Assembly: GCA_015069325.1 (NCBI GenBank) | Contig: SVIV01000002.1 | Coordinates: 97,886-161,885, forward strand | Origin: Clostridiales bacterium | GTDB lineage: Bacteria > Bacillota > Clostridia > Christensenellales > UBA1242 | Reading direction: 5' to 3' | DNA length: 64,000 nucleotides | Translations under genes and position numbers: made by a program | Shown here: piece after piece, positions 50,454 to 64,000 of the stretch | How the letters are laid out: every line of letters begins with the position of its first letter | Position numbering within the stretch: the stretch's first letter is position 1 | Notes under the pieces: generated by a model | Told to the model about the DNA's origin: nothing | The model's database searches: none | Seen by the model: only the letters and a program-made list of their open reading frames with translations

Positions 50454-51071
50454 TTAAACTTCTAAGTACTCTAAGGTAAAGCTTAACCCATTATCAGCAG
50501 AACTTGCAACATAAGCATTTAAGGTCGTCTTATCAACCGCAAATCTTATGCGGATGTAATGAGTGGCCTCCGGCTGAAGTACTAAAGTCATTTGAGAAAA
50601 ATCTGATGATGAAGAAAGTGTTGTCCATTCGGTAGTGCTTCCAGTTGAGATTATGTAAGAACAATTTATGTTTGCCAAATCATCTGAGAAACTTGCCCAA
50701 CTCGATATTACTTGCACTCCTTGCGAAGTTGACGCATTTTCGAATGTATAAGTAAAATCGACATAGGTTTTATCTGCCGTAAGTGCTATGTTGTGCCCTT
50801 GGCCCAATTGCTCTATTTGCTGAACGGAATTGATATCATACTGAATATCCCCCATTTCAACAATGTTTTCTCCTTGGATTTGATAGTATGCTGAAACCTT
50901 TGCCGCAATGTTTTGCCCGACTTCATATTTAATATTGAAATCTGCATCCATTGACTGCATTGTTGCTGCATATACCCCTATTAATGCACCTGTGATTGCG
51001 ATAAGACTGAAAACCAAAAGAAAAACCGCTAGTGTGAATTTAGATCTTGCACTCTTTCTTTTTGCCATCAT
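50454..51071 (-). CDS. Putative fibre/pilin subunit, paralogue 2
   Basis: ALIGVYA/ATMQSMDADFNIKY; IAAKVSAYY; FTYTFEN; start moved to MMAKRK (AGGGG SD). Confidence 0.62.
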   Translation of the reverse strand: MMAKRKSARSKFTLAVFLLVFSLIAITGALIGVYAATMQSMDADFNIKYEVGQNIAAKVSAYYQIQGENIVEMGDIQYDINSVQQIEQLGQGHNIALTADKTYVDFTYTFENASTSQGVQVISSWASFSDDLANINCSYIISTGSTTEWTTLSSSSDFSQMTLVLQPEATHYIRIRFAVDKTTLNAYVASSADNGLSFTLEYLEV

Positions 51072-51076
51072 TACCC

Positions 51077-51643
51077 CTAATCTCCAATTTTGACAATAAC
51101 CCACTCAAGGCCATTCTCAGCATTACTTAAATAGGTGGCATCTCTATCAAGGTTTACGACTGCGATAGTCATTTCAACCGTCCAAGTTTCACCGGCACCA
51201 ACGATAAAACCATTTTGTGGCCTACCGTCTTCACCGTTTACTAAGCAGTAAATACTAATGTTTGATTTGATTGATTCATCTACAAGTGTAACTTTCATTT
51301 CCTTATTCTTCTCATTGTTTGTGAACGTATAGGTAAATTTTACACTACTATGTTCCTGAGTAAGAACAATAGGATCGATTGAAAGCATTTGGTATGCTGT
51401 TTGTTTGTCGTCTTTAGGGTCAAATACGATTTTGCCGAAGCTTACTTCATTACCTTCAAACGTATATTTCCCTTCAACAGTAGCAGCAACCTTCACTTGA
51501 TAGTGCACTTCAAAACTATCATCAGTTTTTAATGCAAAGTAGGCCCCCAAAGCACCCCCTACTAAAAAAAGAATGCAAATTATAAGGATTATTATAAGTT
51601 TTATTCTTTTCTTTTTAGACTCGCCTTGGTAATTTTCTGCCAT
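51077..51643 (-). CDS. Putative fibre/pilin subunit, paralogue 1
   Basis: GALGAYFA...SFEVHY; VAATVEGKY; FTYTFTN; ends NGLEW. Confidence 0.62.
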   Translation of the reverse strand: MAENYQGESKKKRIKLIIILIICILFLVGGALGAYFALKTDDSFEVHYQVKVAATVEGKYTFEGNEVSFGKIVFDPKDDKQTAYQMLSIDPIVLTQEHSSVKFTYTFTNNEKNKEMKVTLVDESIKSNISIYCLVNGEDGRPQNGFIVGAGETWTVEMTIAVVNLDRDATYLSNAENGLEWVIVKIGD

Positions 51644-57079: not shown

Positions 57080-58717
57080 TTATTTTAAAGTAAGATATCC
57101 AGTATTTGTGTTTGCCATTGTGTAAGAAATATTGCTTGAATTCCACGCAACTGCACCAACTAAATTTGTTGAGCAACCCGAGAATGTGTCTGATCCGGTT
57201 GTAACACTTGCTGTTGACCAACCACTTCCGACATAAATTGTCTTAAGTTTTGTGTTGCTACCAAATGTCTTACTCATATTATTCACTTTCGATGTATTAA
57301 ATGATGACAAATCAATAACTTGCATTGTAGTAATATAAAACATTTGTTCCATATTTATTAAACTTGAAGTATTCCAGCCAGAAATATCTAATTTTTTCAA
57401 TCCAGTTGCATTACGGAACATCATTCTAAAAGAAGTTACTTTTGCAGTATTAAAGTGAGTTAAATCTAAACTTGTTAAGCCTTGGCAGTCCTTAAATACC
57501 CCTTCCATAGTGTTAGCAGACTGTGTATTAAAAGTTGAAATATCTAAATTTGCAAGCTTGCTACACCCTTCAAACATACGAATAAAATTTGTAACAGCAC
57601 TTGTGTCAAAATGAGAAAGATCTAAACTTGTTAAGCCCGAACAACCAGCGAACATATATTTAAAAGATCCTGACGCAGAAGTATCAAAAAGAGAACTATC
57701 TAAAGTTGTCAACGCTGCCTGCATACGAAACATAAATTCGAAATGACCTAAAGCTGAAGTGTCAACATTTTTAAAGACTATTGATGTGCATTGAAATGTC
57801 ATAGTGCTAGGATTTGGCACATTAGCTCCAGAAGTAGCGAGATTACTATCACAAAAATCAAAATTTTCAGGAAGAACAATTGTATTTCTTGATGAAACTG
57901 TCATTTTGCTTCCTGACATTTGAGCTCTGATACTTCCATCACCCGCAGCTGACACATCTTCGCCTTGTGGATTTTGAGAATAAATTGTTTCAAATGCAGT
58001 AATTTGTTTGCCTTGTGCTTTTGCAAAAGTGTAAAGTTTTGATTCACTTAATGTTGAACCGCTTGTTTCTTTTGTATGATGATTTAATGTAAGTGAAAAA
58101 CTTCCCAAGCATTCAGCAGTGCTGTTTAAGTCTTTTACAGAAACAGTAACTTTAATAAATTTATACCCATATGCTGCAGCATTGCTTATTTTATTGTTCG
58201 TCCAAGCATTTTCTTCAATTGAAGATGCAGAAGCGGTTGTCATAAATGTTGAGCTATCATAATATTCTGTTTTAATAACAACATTTTCTTTTACTTCAAA
58301 AGTTTGTTCCAACACTACTTGCACATAATCTTTGTTTCTAAGATTATGAACTGTGAAATAGAAAACTACTTCTGGCGTTTCTGGTGTAAGACCAATATCT
58401 CCAAGCCAAATAGACTTTTGTGGAAGTGGATCTGTAGATGCGTTGAAAACAACATAACCTTCTTCATTGGTTACGACATTTCCTTCTTTATCTGCATCAA
58501 TTGTAACGACAGGAACTCCTGAATTTGGAATGTATTTTTCTGTCCTTATTTCTGCCGCAACATTTTCCCCTACTTGATAACCTACTTCAAAGCCAGCACT
58601 CAAGTTTTGTGTTGTAGCCGCCCATACACCAACAATAGCCCCTAACACCAACATAAAGCCGAAACATAATGAAAGAACCGTTGTTCTAAATTTTTTTCCA
58701 GATATAGTTTTTGCCAT
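57080..58717 (-). CDS. Fibre-subunit-like domain fused to BspA-like/DUF285-type LRR surface domain
   Basis: N-terminus GAIVGVWA/ATTQNLSAGFEVGY..VAA, FYFTVHN, VTVSVKD; C-terminal ~26-aa LDLSxFDTSxVTxxxxMFxxC repeats. Confidence 0.78.
   Translation of the reverse strand: MAKTISGKKFRTTVLSLCFGFMLVLGAIVGVWAATTQNLSAGFEVGYQVGENVAAEIRTEKYIPNSGVPVVTIDADKEGNVVTNEEGYVVFNASTDPLPQKSIWLGDIGLTPETPEVVFYFTVHNLRNKDYVQVVLEQTFEVKENVVIKTEYYDSSTFMTTASASSIEENAWTNNKISNAAAYGYKFIKVTVSVKDLNSTAECLGSFSLTLNHHTKETSGSTLSESKLYTFAKAQGKQITAFETIYSQNPQGEDVSAAGDGSIRAQMSGSKMTVSSRNTIVLPENFDFCDSNLATSGANVPNPSTMTFQCTSIVFKNVDTSALGHFEFMFRMQAALTTLDSSLFDTSASGSFKYMFAGCSGLTSLDLSHFDTSAVTNFIRMFEGCSKLANLDISTFNTQSANTMEGVFKDCQGLTSLDLTHFNTAKVTSFRMMFRNATGLKKLDISGWNTSSLINMEQMFYITTMQVIDLSSFNTSKVNNMSKTFGSNTKLKTIYVGSGWSTASVTTGSDTFSGCSTNLVGAVAWNSSNISYTMANTNTGYLTLK
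57240..57780 (-). repeat. About seven 26-aa (78-nt) leucine-rich repeats
   Basis: TCTAAACTTGTTAAGCC recurs at 57465 and 57621, 156 nt apart (2 x 78). Confidence 0.8.
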
Positions 58718-58790
58718 ACTTACCCCTTTTTCTGTATTTTACAATACTATTTACAAATTAGTCAAGCAATTTTCAATATTTTTTTAAACA

Positions 58791-58822
58791 AAAAAAAGAG
58801 ACGCCTTTTTGCATCTCTTTTT
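58791..58822 (-). terminator. Terminator closing the phage-like operon
   Basis: AAAAGAGAcGC-ctttttt-GCaTCTCTTTT imperfect hairpin with T-run on the minus strand. Confidence 0.6.
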
Positions 58823-58832
58823 CCTGAAAAAT

Positions 58833-59069
58833 TTAATTTTCATCATCATTTTGTTGTTGATTTTCGCCCTTTTCGTCCTGCTCAGCCTTTTTTTCGCCAT
58901 TCATTGACACAACTCCTAAGACAACCAAAACTCCCGCGAAGGCCAAAATTACATTTTCAATAAGTTTGCTTTCAATTGAAAAGCCAAATAGTTCACCCAA
59001 AGCATTAACTAAAAGAACAACAGCGCCTGCAAAAGCAGTCCAAAATCCATAACTTTTAAAGATTTTCAT
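58833..59069 (-). CDS. Small two-TM holin-like protein
   Basis: KS..FW.A motif, two TMs, LVVLGVV, charged tail. Confidence 0.6.
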   Translation of the reverse strand: MKIFKSYGFWTAFAGAVVLLVNALGELFGFSIESKLIENVILAFAGVLVVLGVVSMNGEKKAEQDEKGENQQQNDDEN

Positions 59070-59285
59070 TTAATCCCCCTTTGAAATCATATCTTTAAGG
59101 TCTGCAAGTTCTTCTCTGACCTTTTCTATAATAATCAAATGCGTTGAAAGTTCGTTGATGGTATTTCGATATGCCTGCTCACGTTTTTGACTGTCTTTTA
59201 ATTGATAAAACAATAAAAAGACAAACAACATTGCAAATATGCCGTTACCTACAACCGAACTTATAAGTTCTGTCCAGAAATTCAT
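59070..59285 (-). CDS. BhlA/UviB-family holin-like protein
   Basis: NGIFAMLFVFLLFYQLKDS.KRE..Y. Confidence 0.8.
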   Translation of the reverse strand: MNFWTELISSVVGNGIFAMLFVFLLFYQLKDSQKREQAYRNTINELSTHLIIIEKVREELADLKDMISKGD

Positions 59286-59287
59286 AT

Positions 59288-59395
59288 CTACCTCTTTTTA
59301 TCCGCTATTGCTAGCATTTTTTCGGTTGAAAGAGTTTCAAGCAAAAACTCTTCATAATTTATCAAATCTATATGATTTCTGTTTATAATTTTCAT
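59288..59395 (-). CDS. 35-aa hypothetical peptide
   Basis: MKIINRNHIDLINYEEFLLETLSTEKMLAIADKKR*; ATGA overlap with the upstream gene and fills the gap to the holin gene. Confidence 0.45.
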   Translation of the reverse strand: MKIINRNHIDLINYEEFLLETLSTEKMLAIADKKR

Positions 59396-60885
59396 TTTGA
59401 CACCGTTACAACAAAATTACTAATATAATCATCTTCACCGCTGGCAGACTCAACTGCAATTTCAAACATATTGCCCAAAACATTCACTTGAATTTTCTGC
59501 ACATCCTTATCACCTTTAACAAAACACACCTTTTCACCTAAGTCGCTTTTAAACGAAACTTTGCAATCGCTAAACGAAGTTATTAAGAAAGATTTTATTC
59601 GCTTTCTTTCACCTGGCATATCAAAATCCAGTTTTCCACTTTTCCACATGTTAGAAAGTTTTTGCCCAAAAACATTCCCATTTTTTGTAAGCTGACCAAT
59701 CATTCCCTTGTTTTCATTATAAAAGCAAGCAATAAACTTTGATTTTAAGTTGTTTGTAAGGGCAAGCATTTGTCTAATATCTACTCCACGTAAAAGATCA
59801 ACTTGTTTATTTGCAATATCATAAATTATCAATAGATTATTCTTAAATCCATTTTCACAATTTTCACAGCCAATTATCTGCCCATCTTTAAAATCAGCTC
59901 TACAAGCCAAGAAGTATTTTCCGTCATAACACTCTGCATTAATATATCGATTATCCATACCATTCAACATCTGCAAACATTTGATTTCAATTTCTTTGAC
60001 ACTTGTCCCGTTAAACACTTTAAGTTTGTCCCCTTCTATAAAGTAAACATTGTCGCCGTATTCAACAATTGTGTTTGGCTGAATATAATTGGACGCTCTA
60101 TAAACGTGGCTGACTGCAAAAGATTGGCTATTACTGTATGCGGAAATTTCTGTTATCCCAAAATCTCTAAATAAATATATATAATCATTAAATGATATGA
60201 TTCTATTTAAATCTCCCCTTTCATCTGTAAAATCGAGATTTTTTGTAAGGGAATTATCCCAATTAATCACGTCTGTATCTGTATAAACTAAACTCCCCCT
60301 TGCTTCTGCAGTAATGGCAAACAGTTTACCATAATGAGAACAACAAGAAATTATACCTGGAGTTTCTACTTCTTTTCGCACTCCCAAACTTGTAATCACA
60401 AGCGTCTTGCCATCTTTTGATGAAAGCAAAATTGCGTCCTGTTTATCATATCGATAATGTGTTATAAATGGCAGACTAGAAAACTTCGTAGGATAAGAAA
60501 AAGAAATGCTTCTTTGTCTAAACAATGCATCAAAGCACACTTCGTTTGCATCATTATAATAAAACAGACAATTGCAATCTGCTTCTAAATCTATGTCATA
60601 ATATTTCAATTTCCAAACGTGTTGAACTTCTGTTCCTTTGATGCTAAAATCAGATTCAACATCTAAATTTTGATCATCGACAGGCATAGTCAAAGCTTTA
60701 AAACCATATCCACTTTTTAAACTTCCATCTTCTGAAATAAAGTTGTATGATAATTTTGCCTGCCCCGTTTTAAGCAGGACATCATCATCTTTGATGTTCT
60801 GTTCTTGTGCAAAAATATCAAATTCAAACTGTCTTTCAGTTTCCTTTTTACCTTTAAGAGTTTTCTTATAAAACATTAAAGCCAA
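59392..60885 (-). CDS. Putative podovirus-type nozzle / head-closure (beta-propeller-like) protein
   Basis: Beta-rich 497 aa; HYGKLF, WKSG.LDF..PG..KRIK; position after adaptor-like gene. Confidence 0.5.
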   Translation of the reverse strand: MALMFYKKTLKGKKETERQFEFDIFAQEQNIKDDDVLLKTGQAKLSYNFISEDGSLKSGYGFKALTMPVDDQNLDVESDFSIKGTEVQHVWKLKYYDIDLEADCNCLFYYNDANEVCFDALFRQRSISFSYPTKFSSLPFITHYRYDKQDAILLSSKDGKTLVITSLGVRKEVETPGIISCCSHYGKLFAITAEARGSLVYTDTDVINWDNSLTKNLDFTDERGDLNRIISFNDYIYLFRDFGITEISAYSNSQSFAVSHVYRASNYIQPNTIVEYGDNVYFIEGDKLKVFNGTSVKEIEIKCLQMLNGMDNRYINAECYDGKYFLACRADFKDGQIIGCENCENGFKNNLLIIYDIANKQVDLLRGVDIRQMLALTNNLKSKFIACFYNENKGMIGQLTKNGNVFGQKLSNMWKSGKLDFDMPGERKRIKSFLITSFSDCKVSFKSDLGEKVCFVKGDKDVQKIQVNVLGNMFEIAVESASGEDDYISNFVVTVSK

Positions 60886-61427
60886 CTCCTTCTAGGAATC
60901 TTCACTTCGCTTTTTTGTCTTAGCATAATTTGAAGCGAACCTTTAAATCTCTCTTCCCAAATATTTGCATCTTGATATAAGTTGTTTAAAAAGAAATATT
61001 CTCTTGCCACACCATAAGCAAATATTCTTTCCGGTAAGGACGCAGAAAAATCATCATCAAAAGTAAGTTGCTTTGGTGATGTTGAATAAATCACTTCAAC
61101 ATCTTTCCCACAAACAAAAATATAATTATCAAAAATTTTGTAATGCACATTTCTGCCATATCTATCCTTAATCGAATAAATTTCAACAACTTCATTAGAG
61201 AATGATTTTAATTCAAGTTTAAAATTTTTTATTTCAAATTTTTCAGCAATCAAAATAGGTTGATATTCACAAGCAATTTCTTCCCTGACTAGATTAAAAC
61301 ATTTTACAAGTTTGTTCTTCAAATTTTCATCTTCTTCAGATAAACTTTCACCTTTGCGAAGTTTTTCTTCAAGTTCATCACAAGCAACAAAATCACAAGC
61401 TTTTATAATCACGTCTTTTACTTTCAT
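60876..61427 (-). CDS. Putative head-tail adaptor (tail tubular protein A-like)
   Basis: 183 aa; MKVKDVI, VIY...P, YGVA.EY, W...F; position after capsid. Confidence 0.5.
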   Translation of the reverse strand: MKVKDVIIKACDFVACDELEEKLRKGESLSEEDENLKNKLVKCFNLVREEIACEYQPILIAEKFEIKNFKLELKSFSNEVVEIYSIKDRYGRNVHYKIFDNYIFVCGKDVEVIYSTSPKQLTFDDDFSASLPERIFAYGVAREYFFLNNLYQDANIWEERFKGSLQIMLRQKSEVKIPRRSWL

Positions 61428-61735
61428 ACAATCTCCTTGAGCATATTCACCTGCTCTTTTATATTTTTCTCATATACCATTTGATTATTTTGTTCGATTT
61501 CTCTAAGAATGTTGTCCCTATTTTCAATTCTTGTTTTTCTTGCATAAACAAGCGTTCTTTCATCTAACTGAGAATAAGGAACTTTAAAACAAAAACTATT
61601 TTGCTTTTGTGCAGAAGAGTGCACTTCAAAACAATTTAAATCTGTATTAAAATACACTTCATACGATTCATCAATCTGCCTAAGCCTTTCGCAAATAAAG
61701 AAAACATCACTATTAATTTTTATTAATTTCTTCAA
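61424..61735 (-). CDS. Hypothetical protein in the capsid operon
   Basis: AAGGAG SD, TTG start; overlaps next gene. Confidence 0.65.
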   Translation of the reverse strand: MKKLIKINSDVFFICERLRQIDESYEVYFNTDLNCFEVHSSAQKQNSFCFKVPYSQLDERTLVYARKTRIENRDNILREIEQNNQMVYEKNIKEQVNMLKEIV

Positions 61736-61755
61736 AACAATCTCCTTTTTATATG

Positions 61756-61791
61756 AAAAAGAGCAAAAAAATAAGATTTTTGCTCTTTTTT
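61756..61791 (-). terminator. Hairpin after the capsid gene (terminator or stoichiometry attenuator)
   Basis: AAAAAGAGCAAAAA-aataaga-TTTTTGCTCTTTTT. Confidence 0.7.
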
Positions 61792-61808
61792 AACCAATTT
61801 TTATTAAA

Positions 61809-62987
61809 TTAATTTGCAAATGGATTTGTCACTGTAGATTTAATGCCTGAAATTTTTGCCTGTCCACATGGCTTATCACAAATAAGTTCAGCGTATTTTA
61901 CAAGCGTCGCACTATATGTAGGATATCCTTGATTTTGCTTTAAGATTCTTCCATCTTCACCTTCAAGCCACTTCCAGTCGCAAAGTTCGTGAAGAGTAAA
62001 ATCGTTTGTATTAAGAAGATACATTGCGTCATCATCAACAAATCTGTCAGCAACAACAGGAATACCATTATGAGTAATAGTTTTATATCCACCTTCAAGT
62101 TCAGCGATATCAACATTTCTTCTATATGCACCCAAGTATTCTTGATATGCTCTACGCACCTTGCTTGAGCAAGAAATAAAGTTGATTTGAGAATCTGTAT
62201 TCATATCAAGAAAATCAATTGCTTCTTGAATTAAGATATCTGAAACCTCTGTAGCAGTTGCGCTTACATAAGGTTTAAGCCAAGGATATGCTGATTTTGA
62301 CACTCCATAAATTTCACTTTGACTTTCATCAAAGATTCTGCCAAGACCAGAAATTTCAAAATCTTTTGACCCTTGAACATAAAGTTTATCACCTGCAGTT
62401 ACAGTTGCGTTTCCTGAGAAAATAAATGTTTTATTTACTCTGTCAACATATTCCACTTTAATTGGAGATGCACTTGTTTTATTTTCTGCAGTATAAACAT
62501 CAATAAGCATTCCTTCAATTAAATTGTTAACTTTATCACAACTAACTGTTTTTCCATCAACAGAAGATACTGTAGCGATTAAGCCTGTGCCATCACCATA
62601 AATCATTCTTCCTAAGTTGAAAGCACTTGCCTTAACAAGACCTTCCATTTCGTCAGATAAAAGATTTACAAATGCACCTGCATTGCTGCTTGATGCACGA
62701 ACAGCTTTATCTGAAATTTCAATTTTTCCATACAAGTTTTTAAGTTCACTTACAAATTGAACATAACCATTTCCACTAGCAGTTGGGAGAGCTCCCGTTT
62801 CACTTCCAGCACCAACCCCGCCATTGATACCAAATGGAGCAAGTTTTCTAATTTCTTTTCCCCAAACATCTTTGTTTGAACGTTTTATTTTCGCCAAAAG
62901 TGGATTTGCATTTACATTGAGTTGATTCGCAACAACACCAAGGTAAACATCTTTAAGTGCACTTTCAGCAGTTTTTAATGTAACCAT
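61809..62987 (-). CDS. Phage major capsid protein (HK97-like)
   Basis: 392 aa after a scaffold gene; E.GALP, LYG.I.IS, GDGTG, GIPVVAD, Y.ELIC..P..Q; strong AAGGAG SD. Confidence 0.75.
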   Translation of the reverse strand: MVTLKTAESALKDVYLGVVANQLNVNANPLLAKIKRSNKDVWGKEIRKLAPFGINGGVGAGSETGALPTASGNGYVQFVSELKNLYGKIEISDKAVRASSSNAGAFVNLLSDEMEGLVKASAFNLGRMIYGDGTGLIATVSSVDGKTVSCDKVNNLIEGMLIDVYTAENKTSASPIKVEYVDRVNKTFIFSGNATVTAGDKLYVQGSKDFEISGLGRIFDESQSEIYGVSKSAYPWLKPYVSATATEVSDILIQEAIDFLDMNTDSQINFISCSSKVRRAYQEYLGAYRRNVDIAELEGGYKTITHNGIPVVADRFVDDDAMYLLNTNDFTLHELCDWKWLEGEDGRILKQNQGYPTYSATLVKYAELICDKPCGQAKISGIKSTVTNPFAN

Positions 62988-63066
62988 TTTTTCTCCTTTT
63001 TTATTAAAAATATCATTTTTTGCTATTTTTATTTGAAAAAAATGTAGAATTGAATTAATTATCTGT

Positions 63067-63708
63067 TTAGCTAAACATTTTATCCACTAAACTCTTCGCT
63101 TCGGCAAGGGTTTTAGGCTTGTCAGGTTTTACACTCGACAACCTTTCACCCCCGCTTGACGACATAACAATAGGTGGCTTCAAATTCTTCAAATCAATGA
63201 GATAATTTTCAATAATTTTGTTTTTTACATTTTCATCAGATAATACATATTGATTGATAATCGGGTCGCTTAACTTATCACCTTCTTTCAAGTGATTCAA
63301 AACTACTTCAGCCCACGCAACCTGATATGGACTGCAATCTTTAGATGAAGAAGACGAAAATTTATTCAATATCTCTTCTTCATACATTTTAGCTTCATCA
63401 TTATTTTCAAGGAACAGCTTAAACACCTCTTGATTAAACCCATTTTCTTTTTCTTCTTTTTCCACAAACTCATCTTTTTGTTCAACTTCGGCTTGCTCTG
63501 TTTTATCTTTTTGATATTGACTTAGCTGTTGACATTTCCTTGTAAACTCACTTTGCAAATTCTCATATGCGTCCATAAGAGCTTGCACACTTTTAAATTT
63601 TCCAAGTTCTGCCATTTGAGAGCCGGCCGCATCAACAACTTCACTTTCTTGCACCTGCTCAAAATCAGATGCCGACACTTCAACCGGTTGTTCTCTATTT
63701 TCTTCCAT
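63067..63708 (-). CDS. Putative capsid scaffolding protein
   Basis: Acidic N-terminus, GKFKS...L..AY.NLQ.EFTRK, coiled coil, C-terminal PKTL.EA. Confidence 0.65.
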   Translation of the reverse strand: MEENREQPVEVSASDFEQVQESEVVDAAGSQMAELGKFKSVQALMDAYENLQSEFTRKCQQLSQYQKDKTEQAEVEQKDEFVEKEEKENGFNQEVFKLFLENNDEAKMYEEEILNKFSSSSSKDCSPYQVAWAEVVLNHLKEGDKLSDPIINQYVLSDENVKNKIIENYLIDLKNLKPPIVMSSSGGERLSSVKPDKPKTLAEAKSLVDKMFS

Positions 63709-63710
63709 AT

Positions 63711-64000
63711 CTATACCCCCATTTTTTTATGTTCATTAATATGATTTAAAAATCTTTGTTCTGCATTTTTATCCGCTTGACTCACATTTTCAAAATCTTG
63801 ACCAAGCATAAACGCAATATGCTCGTTGATATGCAGAGAGTGATTATCTATTTCGCTTACATAAACTTCAATATTATTTAATAATTTCAAGTTTTCTTTT
63901 CCTGCCTTTTTAATGTGAAGTTCATTTACATCTTGCGCATTTTCCCAAGTTCCCATTCCAAGCATTTCAACAATTTTCGTTTTCATCTTATTTGACAAGT
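63711..64000 (-). CDS. Probable C-terminus of a portal protein (5' part outside window)
   Basis: Frame open to near the window edge; DNH..HI.EH...HI.EH motifs; position directly before the scaffold gene. Confidence 0.5.
   Translation of the reverse strand, partial: LSNKMKTKIVEMLGMGTWENAQDVNELHIKKAGKENLKLLNNIEVYVSEIDNHSLHINEHIAFMLGQDFENVSQADKNAEQRFLNHINEHKKMGV

Follow-up and report, generated by a model that had tools for sequence, protein, structure and literature searches.

A probably domesticated head operon of short-tailed phage descent, candidate for a gene-transfer-agent-like particle in ~1-Mb gut Clostridia

Introduction

Does a close-packed set of phage head genes in the chromosome of a gut bacterium belong to a prophage, or to a particle that the host lineage has made its own? 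The question is raised by positions 58833-64000 of a 64,000-nt stretch of DNA, hereafter the window, which was taken from the source genome G000 (G000:C7:97886-161885; window coordinates are used below unless a C7 or an L label is given, the L labels designating fetched loci, of which L003 and L037 come from G000). G000 counts 986,605 bp in 8 contigs, with about 33% G+C and a completeness of 96%. The host genus belongs to the Christensenellales-type Clostridia of the gut and has genomes of ~1 Mb, and the relatives in which the capsid gene was found are mostly metagenome-assembled genomes (MAGs) of animal and human guts.

An earlier note on this DNA had suggested that these genes may encode a short-tailed particle passed on vertically instead of forming a prophage. 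This proposal is supported here by synteny, by near-universal presence in the genus, by the ratios of nonsynonymous to synonymous substitution rates (dN/dS) and by the agreement of trees, and domestication with vertical inheritance is considered very probable. With moderate confidence, the system is further assigned as a gene transfer agent (GTA)-like particle, a function which its anatomy and conservation suggest. To our knowledge, GTAs were long known almost only from Alphaproteobacteria.

Composition of the head operon

By sequence homology and structure models, the window holds the last two thirds, in the direction of transcription, of an operon of ten genes that descends from a short-tailed (P22/SU10-like) phage. 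In their order, the ten genes code for a protein resembling the small terminase subunit (TerS-like), a 74-aa protein with four cysteines, the portal, a scaffold-like protein, the capsid, a 103-aa protein, an adaptor, a nozzle, a BhlA-family holin and a second holin. All of the genes listed earlier between 58833 and 64000 were present on the minus strand, intact and close-packed.

The window keeps the C-terminus of the portal, i.e. the last 95 codons of a 614-aa gene (63711-64000, minus strand), which continues to G000:C7:163440; the full gene (L003:5597-7441) matched Pfam P22_portal (7e-24) and phrog_156 (2e-43). It is followed by the gene for an acidic 213-aa protein (63067-63708, minus strand), called scaffold-like by position only, for which no match was found in the Pfam, PHROG and NCBIfam family searches and which is present in 16/16 related loci with identities of 35-74%. 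The next gene codes for the major capsid protein (392 aa; 61809-62987, minus strand), of the HK97-type podovirus family. It matched phrog_14242 (7e-55) and NCBIfam NF033394 capsid_maj_Podo (263 bits for a cut-off of 80), and the SU10-type capsid family was found again in the ESM Atlas; the best match among deposited phages reached an identity of only 29%.

Between the capsid and adaptor genes lies the gene for a conserved 103-aa protein (61424-61735, minus strand), a neck or head accessory protein by position, which was found in the 16/16 same-genus loci and in the loci L032-L035 (L032, L033 and L035 being from the other-family genomes G059, G045 and G039, respectively). No Pfam, PHROG or NCBIfam match and no PDB sequence match was obtained with this protein, and the alignment of 20 sequences contained 6 invariant columns.

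The adaptor and nozzle, which had been flagged earlier as positional calls, were confirmed by AF2 models built with alignments of 19 homologues and compared by Foldseek. The head-to-tail adaptor (183 aa; 60876-61427, minus strand; pLDDT 89.8) resembled podovirus adaptors, namely those of Pa223 (9nwi_A, TM-scores 0.68/0.61) and SU10 (7z47_A, TM-score 0.63), and also those of KHP30 and N4; its match with Pfam SU10_adaptor (8e-4) was under the cut-off. The tail nozzle (497 aa; 59392-60885, minus strand; pLDDT 85.6, pTM 0.87), of the beta-propeller type, matched the Pa223 tail protein 9nwi_Y (E 7e-20, TM-scores 0.72/0.70), VP1 8zkk_O, P22 gp10 8eap_D, SU10 7z47_G and T7 gp12. Both folds of a podovirus tail hub, the adaptor and the beta-propeller nozzle, are therefore encoded after the capsid gene.

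The operon ends with two small holin-like genes, each found in 16/16 loci. The first (71 aa; 59070-59285, minus strand) belongs to the BhlA family (Pfam Holin_BhlA 5e-14, 52 bits for a cut-off of 22.6) and the second (78 aa; 58833-59069, minus strand) matched Pfam Phage_holin_1 (6e-5, 23.9 bits for a cut-off of 22) and the holin family phrog_297 (9e-8). As for the terminator that had been claimed after the holins, a hairpin with a T-run was seen by eye (58789-58818, minus strand; stem of 8 bp including a single G-U pair, loop of 6 nt), compatible with an intrinsic terminator, but it is absent from the list of the rule-based scan.

Conservation, selection and shared history

Synteny was followed in 16 same-genus loci of 20 kb each, and genes were counted in 120 same-genus genomes for the nozzle and the large terminase gene (terL), 82 of them being of high quality, and in 36 for the capsid gene. 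In the 16/16 loci, the ten genes keep one order and one site, with the same ABC transporter always facing them head-to-head; so constant an arrangement goes far beyond chance. The capsid gene was single-copy in 36/36 genomes, with identities going from 91% down to 48%. The nozzle profile was detected in 119/120 genomes (82/82 of high quality) and terL in 116/120 (81/82 of high quality). Taken together, these counts do not reveal the patchy presence that the earlier note would expect of a prophage.

Outside the genus, the capsid gene was found in 9/24 single representatives of other families and, at the level of the order, the capsid profile matched 140 of the 301 genomes with a completeness of at least 90%. 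The families are near all-or-none, with 16/16, 15/16, 13/16 and 11/16 positive genomes in some vs 0/16 in six others. This distribution fits better with inheritance within a sub-clade than with sporadic lysogeny.

In-frame stops were isolated, with a single TAA in each of the capsid genes of G034 and G036, the nozzle gene of G012 and the terL of G123. As separate observations, a single in-frame TGA was present inside full-length capsid matches in three other-family genomes (G048, G286 and G301), and the capsid gene of another other-family genome, G056, was in two pieces; these TGA codons and the split gene could be sequencing errors, recoding or decay. Two capsid genes in tandem were observed in a genome of the same family and another genus (G277:C2:8035-10367).

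Selection was estimated by pairwise dN/dS (NG86). Between G000 and G016, values of 0.05-0.21 were obtained for nine cluster genes, the 74-aa gene being saturated, and of 0.05-0.25 for five host neighbours. In the closer pair G011 and G006 (dS 0.03-0.22), the cluster genes gave 0.00-0.25 and the host neighbours 0.04-0.08. The relaxed selection that would indicate decay was thus not observed, the overall ranges being 0.00-0.25 for the cluster vs 0.04-0.25 for the host neighbours.

The history of the cluster was analysed in 17 genomes, none of which was dropped, by comparing a tree of the portal, capsid, nozzle and adaptor (1731 columns) with one made from the three host genes next to the cluster (910 columns). 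Of 14 splits, 12 were present in both trees, whereas shuffled labels left 0.28 in common on average and never more than 3, and the patristic distances were correlated with r = 0.91, a value reached by 0/2000 permutations. The host-congruent phylogeny, proposed earlier as a check, is thus found at the level of the neighbourhood: the cluster tree agrees with the adjacent host genes, and this agreement describes the history of the neighbourhood, not the species tree.

Flanks of the operon and absence of a prophage

Contig C7 extends 87 kb past the window on the upstream side of the operon. Beyond the portal gene, outside the window, are found the gene of the 74-aa protein, with four invariant cysteines and no match in a PDB sequence search, and the TerS-like gene, then the divergent ABC transporter; the latter is followed by the gene of a membrane protein, by rsmE and by dnaJ/dnaK/grpE/hrcA. 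This upstream stretch yielded neither a large terminase nor an integrase, and no gene for replication, fibre or endolysin; around the operon no tRNA was found, and a search for flanking direct (att-like) repeats gave only short imperfect AT-rich ones, none of them convincing.

A full prophage upstream was rejected, the operon being continued there by two small genes and then by the host ABC transporter, rsmE, dnaJ and dnaK. Host genes flank the operon on both sides. On the side seen earlier as well, the reported lack of fibre, endolysin, integrase and att repeat held, none being found. More generally, an integrated prophage, intact or decaying, was discarded since no integrase, att site, replication or lysogeny gene accompanies genes that are intact and near-universal in the genus. 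Only head, neck, packaging and holin genes have been kept, in the chromosome and without an integration or replication module.

A separate locus for the large terminase

A single terL was detected in G000 by tblastn with the terL proteins of other-family clusters (62% identity to the best). In three other-family genomes, the homologous clusters have terL beside the portal or TerS gene. The G000 gene is located at C7:33163-34581, outside the window and 122 kb from the head operon. Its product matched Pfam Terminase_6N and 6C, both above their cut-offs, and the motifs Walker A (GGNRSGKT) and Walker B (FVWFDEE) are readable in it. No second terminase was found in G000 (PF03237 gave 1 match, which is terL, and PF03354 gave 0). 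The earlier note was right in placing the terminase outside the window, but the gene is not simply upstream: it stands as a solo terL at its own conserved locus.

In 16/16 relatives, the terL block is composed of a 164-aa regulator of the sigma-70-region-4-like type, an opposite-strand protein with SH3-like and transmembrane features, terL and a GLUG surface protein. In 3/16 (G003, G036 and G078), the block and the head operon follow each other over ~17 kb, with no more in between than the genes of the surface protein, of a membrane protein and of the ABC transporter. In G059, from another family, the cluster begins with the regulator, the opposite-strand gene, terL, the TerS-like gene, the 74-aa gene and the portal and goes on to the nozzle, after which come NHL-like and DUF7934 genes and then both holins, with metabolic host genes on both flanks. 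Between the two families, homology was detected for both the regulator (E 1e-11) and the opposite-strand gene (E 2e-7). Most simply, the contiguous layout is ancestral for the genus and was later split by rearrangement.

The split bears on self-transfer. In G000 it exceeds any tailed-phage head of this type, and the element should be unable to move itself because its genes are 122 kb apart and are not accompanied by integrase or replication genes. In the 3/16 contiguous relatives (~17 kb), transfer of the own gene set depends on the capsid size.

Two proteins of the block were also characterized. The opposite-strand gene between the regulator and terL (G000:C7:34669-35442, L037:10670-11443) codes for a membrane protein of 257 aa, in which a weak match of the SH3-like type was obtained. 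The GLUG-motif surface protein (798 aa; G000:C7:30586-32982, L037:6587-8983) has a signal peptide and a C-terminal anchor and is fast-evolving; it follows terL on the same strand in 16/16 relatives with 22-36% identity, and its dN/dS of 0.3-0.7 comes from saturated pairs. This protein may act with the system at the cell surface or may simply be its neighbour.

Small terminase, promoters and regulation

The TerS-like protein matched phrog_309 (1e-5), covering only its positions 196-243, and in one pairwise alignment its match was confined to residues 63-130 of a prophage-type TerS of 150 aa, whose N-terminus matches a helix-turn-helix family. When the upstream DNA of 20 loci was aligned and inspected by eye, a conserved TTGKCA was seen, then TTGA-N17/18-TAWAAT and a ribosome-binding site before Met31 of the called open reading frame (ORF). 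Given this promoter and ribosome-binding site, the product is probably of ~96 aa and devoid of the DNA-recognition domain. A sigma-54 reading of the conserved TGGCA-N-TTG element that precedes the head operon was dropped, as its spacing is 1 base over the consensus and TTGAAA-N18-TATAAT follows.

The regulator also has a conserved promoter, TTGACT-N18-TATAAT, with the palindrome TTGTAAAATATTTTACAA in front. A 14-mer, TTTATCGGAGAAAT, has only two exact copies in the 986-kb genome (G000:C7:34596 and C7:164039), located 1-2 bases before the ATGs of terL and of the long TerS ORF; conservation of this 14-mer does not extend to the closest relative.

In G000 and 5/16 relatives, lexA stands beside the regulator. 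The block concerned (G000:C7:36563-37840, L037:12564-13841) contains a 62-aa zinc-ribbon-like ORF, lexA and a 127-aa Spo0A_C protein, and it has the same distribution. Taking GAAC-N4-GTTC as the presumed consensus of LexA-type boxes, the only exact box near the system was that of lexA itself (L037:13378, GAACGCCCGTTC). SOS control was rejected, this sole exact box preceding lexA.

comEC and DNA uptake

The earlier note had also drawn attention to comEC one gene downstream. In G000 this gene does lie one gene past the operon, separated from it by a DUF285 surface protein. The adjacency did not hold as a conserved link: comEC was within the fetched 20 kb in only 6/16 relatives, and other subclades carry polA/ruvX or gpr/groESL downstream instead. 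Because it is kept in so few relatives, the adjacency is not part of the system, and comEC-holA is an ordinary host gene pair.

G000 possesses comEC and dprA. No ATPase of the T2SSE type (ComGA/PilB) was found above the cut-off in G000, and the only strong HHH_3 match, a 720-aa frame, is more like Tex than ComEA. From these sequences, G000 seems to have a channel for DNA uptake but no obvious pilus.

Proposed function and competing explanations

In the mechanism proposed for a GTA-like particle, the sigma-70-region-4-like regulator would, in part of the cells, activate terL together with the head operon. The portal, scaffold and capsid proteins would assemble a procapsid, into which TerL would pack any cellular DNA available with the help of a short TerS lacking the N-terminal DNA-recognition part. 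The portal would then be closed by the adaptor and the nozzle, the producer cell would be lysed by the two holins, and the particles would carry DNA to kin in the manner of GTAs.

Several points weigh against this assignment. The system is known from its genes alone, from whose anatomy and conservation we infer the GTA function. Tail fibre, receptor-binding protein, needle/plug and endolysin were not found in G000; tblastn with the fibre, tail and endolysin genes of relatives gave no match at E <0.3 in this genome and Amidase_2 gave 0 matches. Since the genome is 96% complete, a locus could be missing. terL was not matched in 4/120 same-genus genomes (80-94% complete), among them the closest relative G016, and its dN/dS, 0.16-0.21 where computable, is unreliable because synonymous sites are saturated in every pair (dS >1.2 or undefined). 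The truncation of TerS is deduced from a single pairwise alignment together with HMM coordinates. No LexA box was detected at the regulator, terL and head promoters, the match counts being at chance level. Finally, since the host markers of the tree test physically adjoin the cluster, the common history that it reveals is that of the neighbourhood and does not extend to the species tree.

The alternative that survives best, which we consider unlikely, is a domesticated particle with another job: a PBSX-like killer, a programmed lysis freeing DNA or cytoplasm for kin, or an anti-phage decoy. Conservation and purifying selection show that the genes are used and say nothing of the purpose; moreover, an operon ending with two holins is compatible with a lytic role, and the lack of any detected fibre or receptor-binding protein suits a particle that needs no specific docking. 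However, a complete packaging set, i.e. the TerS-like protein, the portal and a TerL with intact ATPase motifs and a nuclease domain, is kept under selection, and killing of the PBSX type needs a contractile tail, which is not present.

The same missing fibres and endolysin could be explained, with a clearly lower probability, by a helper-dependent element comparable to the capsid-forming phage satellites, which would produce heads and stub tails itself and for which a co-resident phage would supply fibres or lysis enzymes. In agreement with this, some other-family clusters carry extra genes (NHL-like and DUF7934 after the nozzle in L032; an endolysin and a tail protein in L033). Neither integrase, replication gene, att repeat nor tRNA target was found, however, and the genes occupy the same chromosomal site in 16/16 relatives and co-diverge with their neighbours; in G000 they are split over 122 kb, which is not packageable as a unit, and the genome contains no second terminase.

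An inert prophage remnant that has not yet decayed is very improbable: the phage origin is certain, other-family copies have an adjacent terL (L032, L033 and L035 from G059, G045 and G039) and G045 holds two capsid-gene copies, but genomes of ~1 Mb keep the ten genes and terL intact across capsid identities of 91%-48%, with dN/dS of 0.00-0.25 and isolated in-frame stops only.

Comparison with known systems

The GTA-like assignment can be compared with RcGTA of Rhodobacter capsulatus, whose vertically inherited head and packaging genes are under host control, with dispersed accessory loci. Its release depends on lysis, its TerS is devoid of sequence specificity, and its recipients require ComEC and DprA. 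The present system is similar in the vertical inheritance of head and packaging genes, in having its loci apart in the chromosome and in the presence of the ComEC and DprA genes in G000. It differs in that RcGTA is siphovirus-like, with tape measure, tail tube and fibres, whereas only the adaptor and nozzle are found here, and in the bacterial phylum. With phages of the P22/SU10/Pa223 type are shared the adaptor and nozzle folds, a P22-like portal and hints of an SU10-type capsid, whereas their needle/plug, tailspike, fibre and ejection proteins are not present here. The capsid-forming phage-inducible chromosomal islands (PICIs) have their own capsid and packaging genes without tails or fibres; phage satellites use an integrase to enter att sites, replicate and vary in presence from strain to strain. 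Unlike the capsid-forming PICIs, the present system shows no integrase, replication module or strain-variable presence.

The nearest published system is FpGTA of Faecalibacterium prausnitzii, a podovirus-like GTA (Borodovich et al., Nat Commun 2026, PMC12946183), the first GTA reported from the gut and the first of podovirus-like type. According to the same source, FpGTA is also a podovirus-like, chromosomally fixed particle system of gut Clostridia, with a TerS/portal/scaffold/capsid operon free of replication or integration genes and a TerS without obvious DNA-binding domain, a feature that is probable here from the sequence (PMC12946183). Its genes are at two loci ~125 kb apart, to be compared with 122 kb here, and it is described in all examined species of a genus, as the present system is near-universal in its own (PMC12946183).

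The two systems differ in several respects (PMC12946183). In FpGTA, terL is inside operon I and the second locus carries the baseplate, fibre, receptor-binding protein, holin and endolysin, whereas here terL and the regulator form the second locus, the head operon has the holins at its end, and an operon for fibre, receptor-binding protein or endolysin was not found. The FpGTA capsid RCH50849.1 is named 'N4-gp56 family' (PMC12946183, Table S2), whereas the capsid found here matches NF033394 only; TIGR04387 capsid_maj_N4 gave 0 matches in G000 at E up to 1. For FpGTA, particles, 8.4-8.9-kb DNA and proteomics are reported (PMC12946183), which are to be set against genes only in the present case. 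These differences suggest a separate domestication, the capsids being set apart by family names, not by sequences.

In the same work, GTA-like packaging of Christensenellaceae MAG DNA is reported in human faecal particles (3/25 events), and no gene cluster is named for it (PMC12946183). If it is a GTA, the present system gives a candidate gene set for this packaging. No other description of such a gene set in Christensenellales was found in full-text searches of the literature. We tentatively suggest that a large clade of gut Christensenellales with reduced genomes may have fixed a fibre-less, podovirus-derived GTA independently of FpGTA, that this GTA may be the genetic basis of the faecal Christensenellaceae DNA packaging, and that the particle may replace the DNA-capture step of transformation. 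This last step may have been taken over because the ~1-Mb genomes keep ComEC and DprA without a competence-pilus ATPase. If true, capsid-mediated DNA exchange could belong to the core traits of a lineage that is widespread in the gut. The system has been retained by bacteria that lost most of their genome, and a minimal particle made of portal, capsid, adaptor and nozzle suits structural and mechanistic study.

Minor features and neighbouring genes

Directly 3' of the capsid gene, a bidirectional 16-bp hairpin (61754-61792, no strand assigned) was present in the rule-based terminator-like list. It is a possible partial terminator and may control how many head transcripts are made relative to tail transcripts.

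After the nozzle gene, a 35-aa ORF (59288-59395, minus strand) has its start overlapping the nozzle stop. A similar peptide was found in 1/15 same-genus loci (L030) when only Met-starting ORFs were scanned, and an ORF of ~95 aa occupies its place in three same-genus loci.

The protein encoded between the last holin and comEC (57080-58717) is a surface protein of the DUF285/leucine-rich repeat (BspA-like) type. Two smaller genes in the window (51077-51643 and 50454-51104) code for N-terminal signal-anchor regions resembling that of the DUF285 protein, and the three apparently represent one variable surface-protein family.

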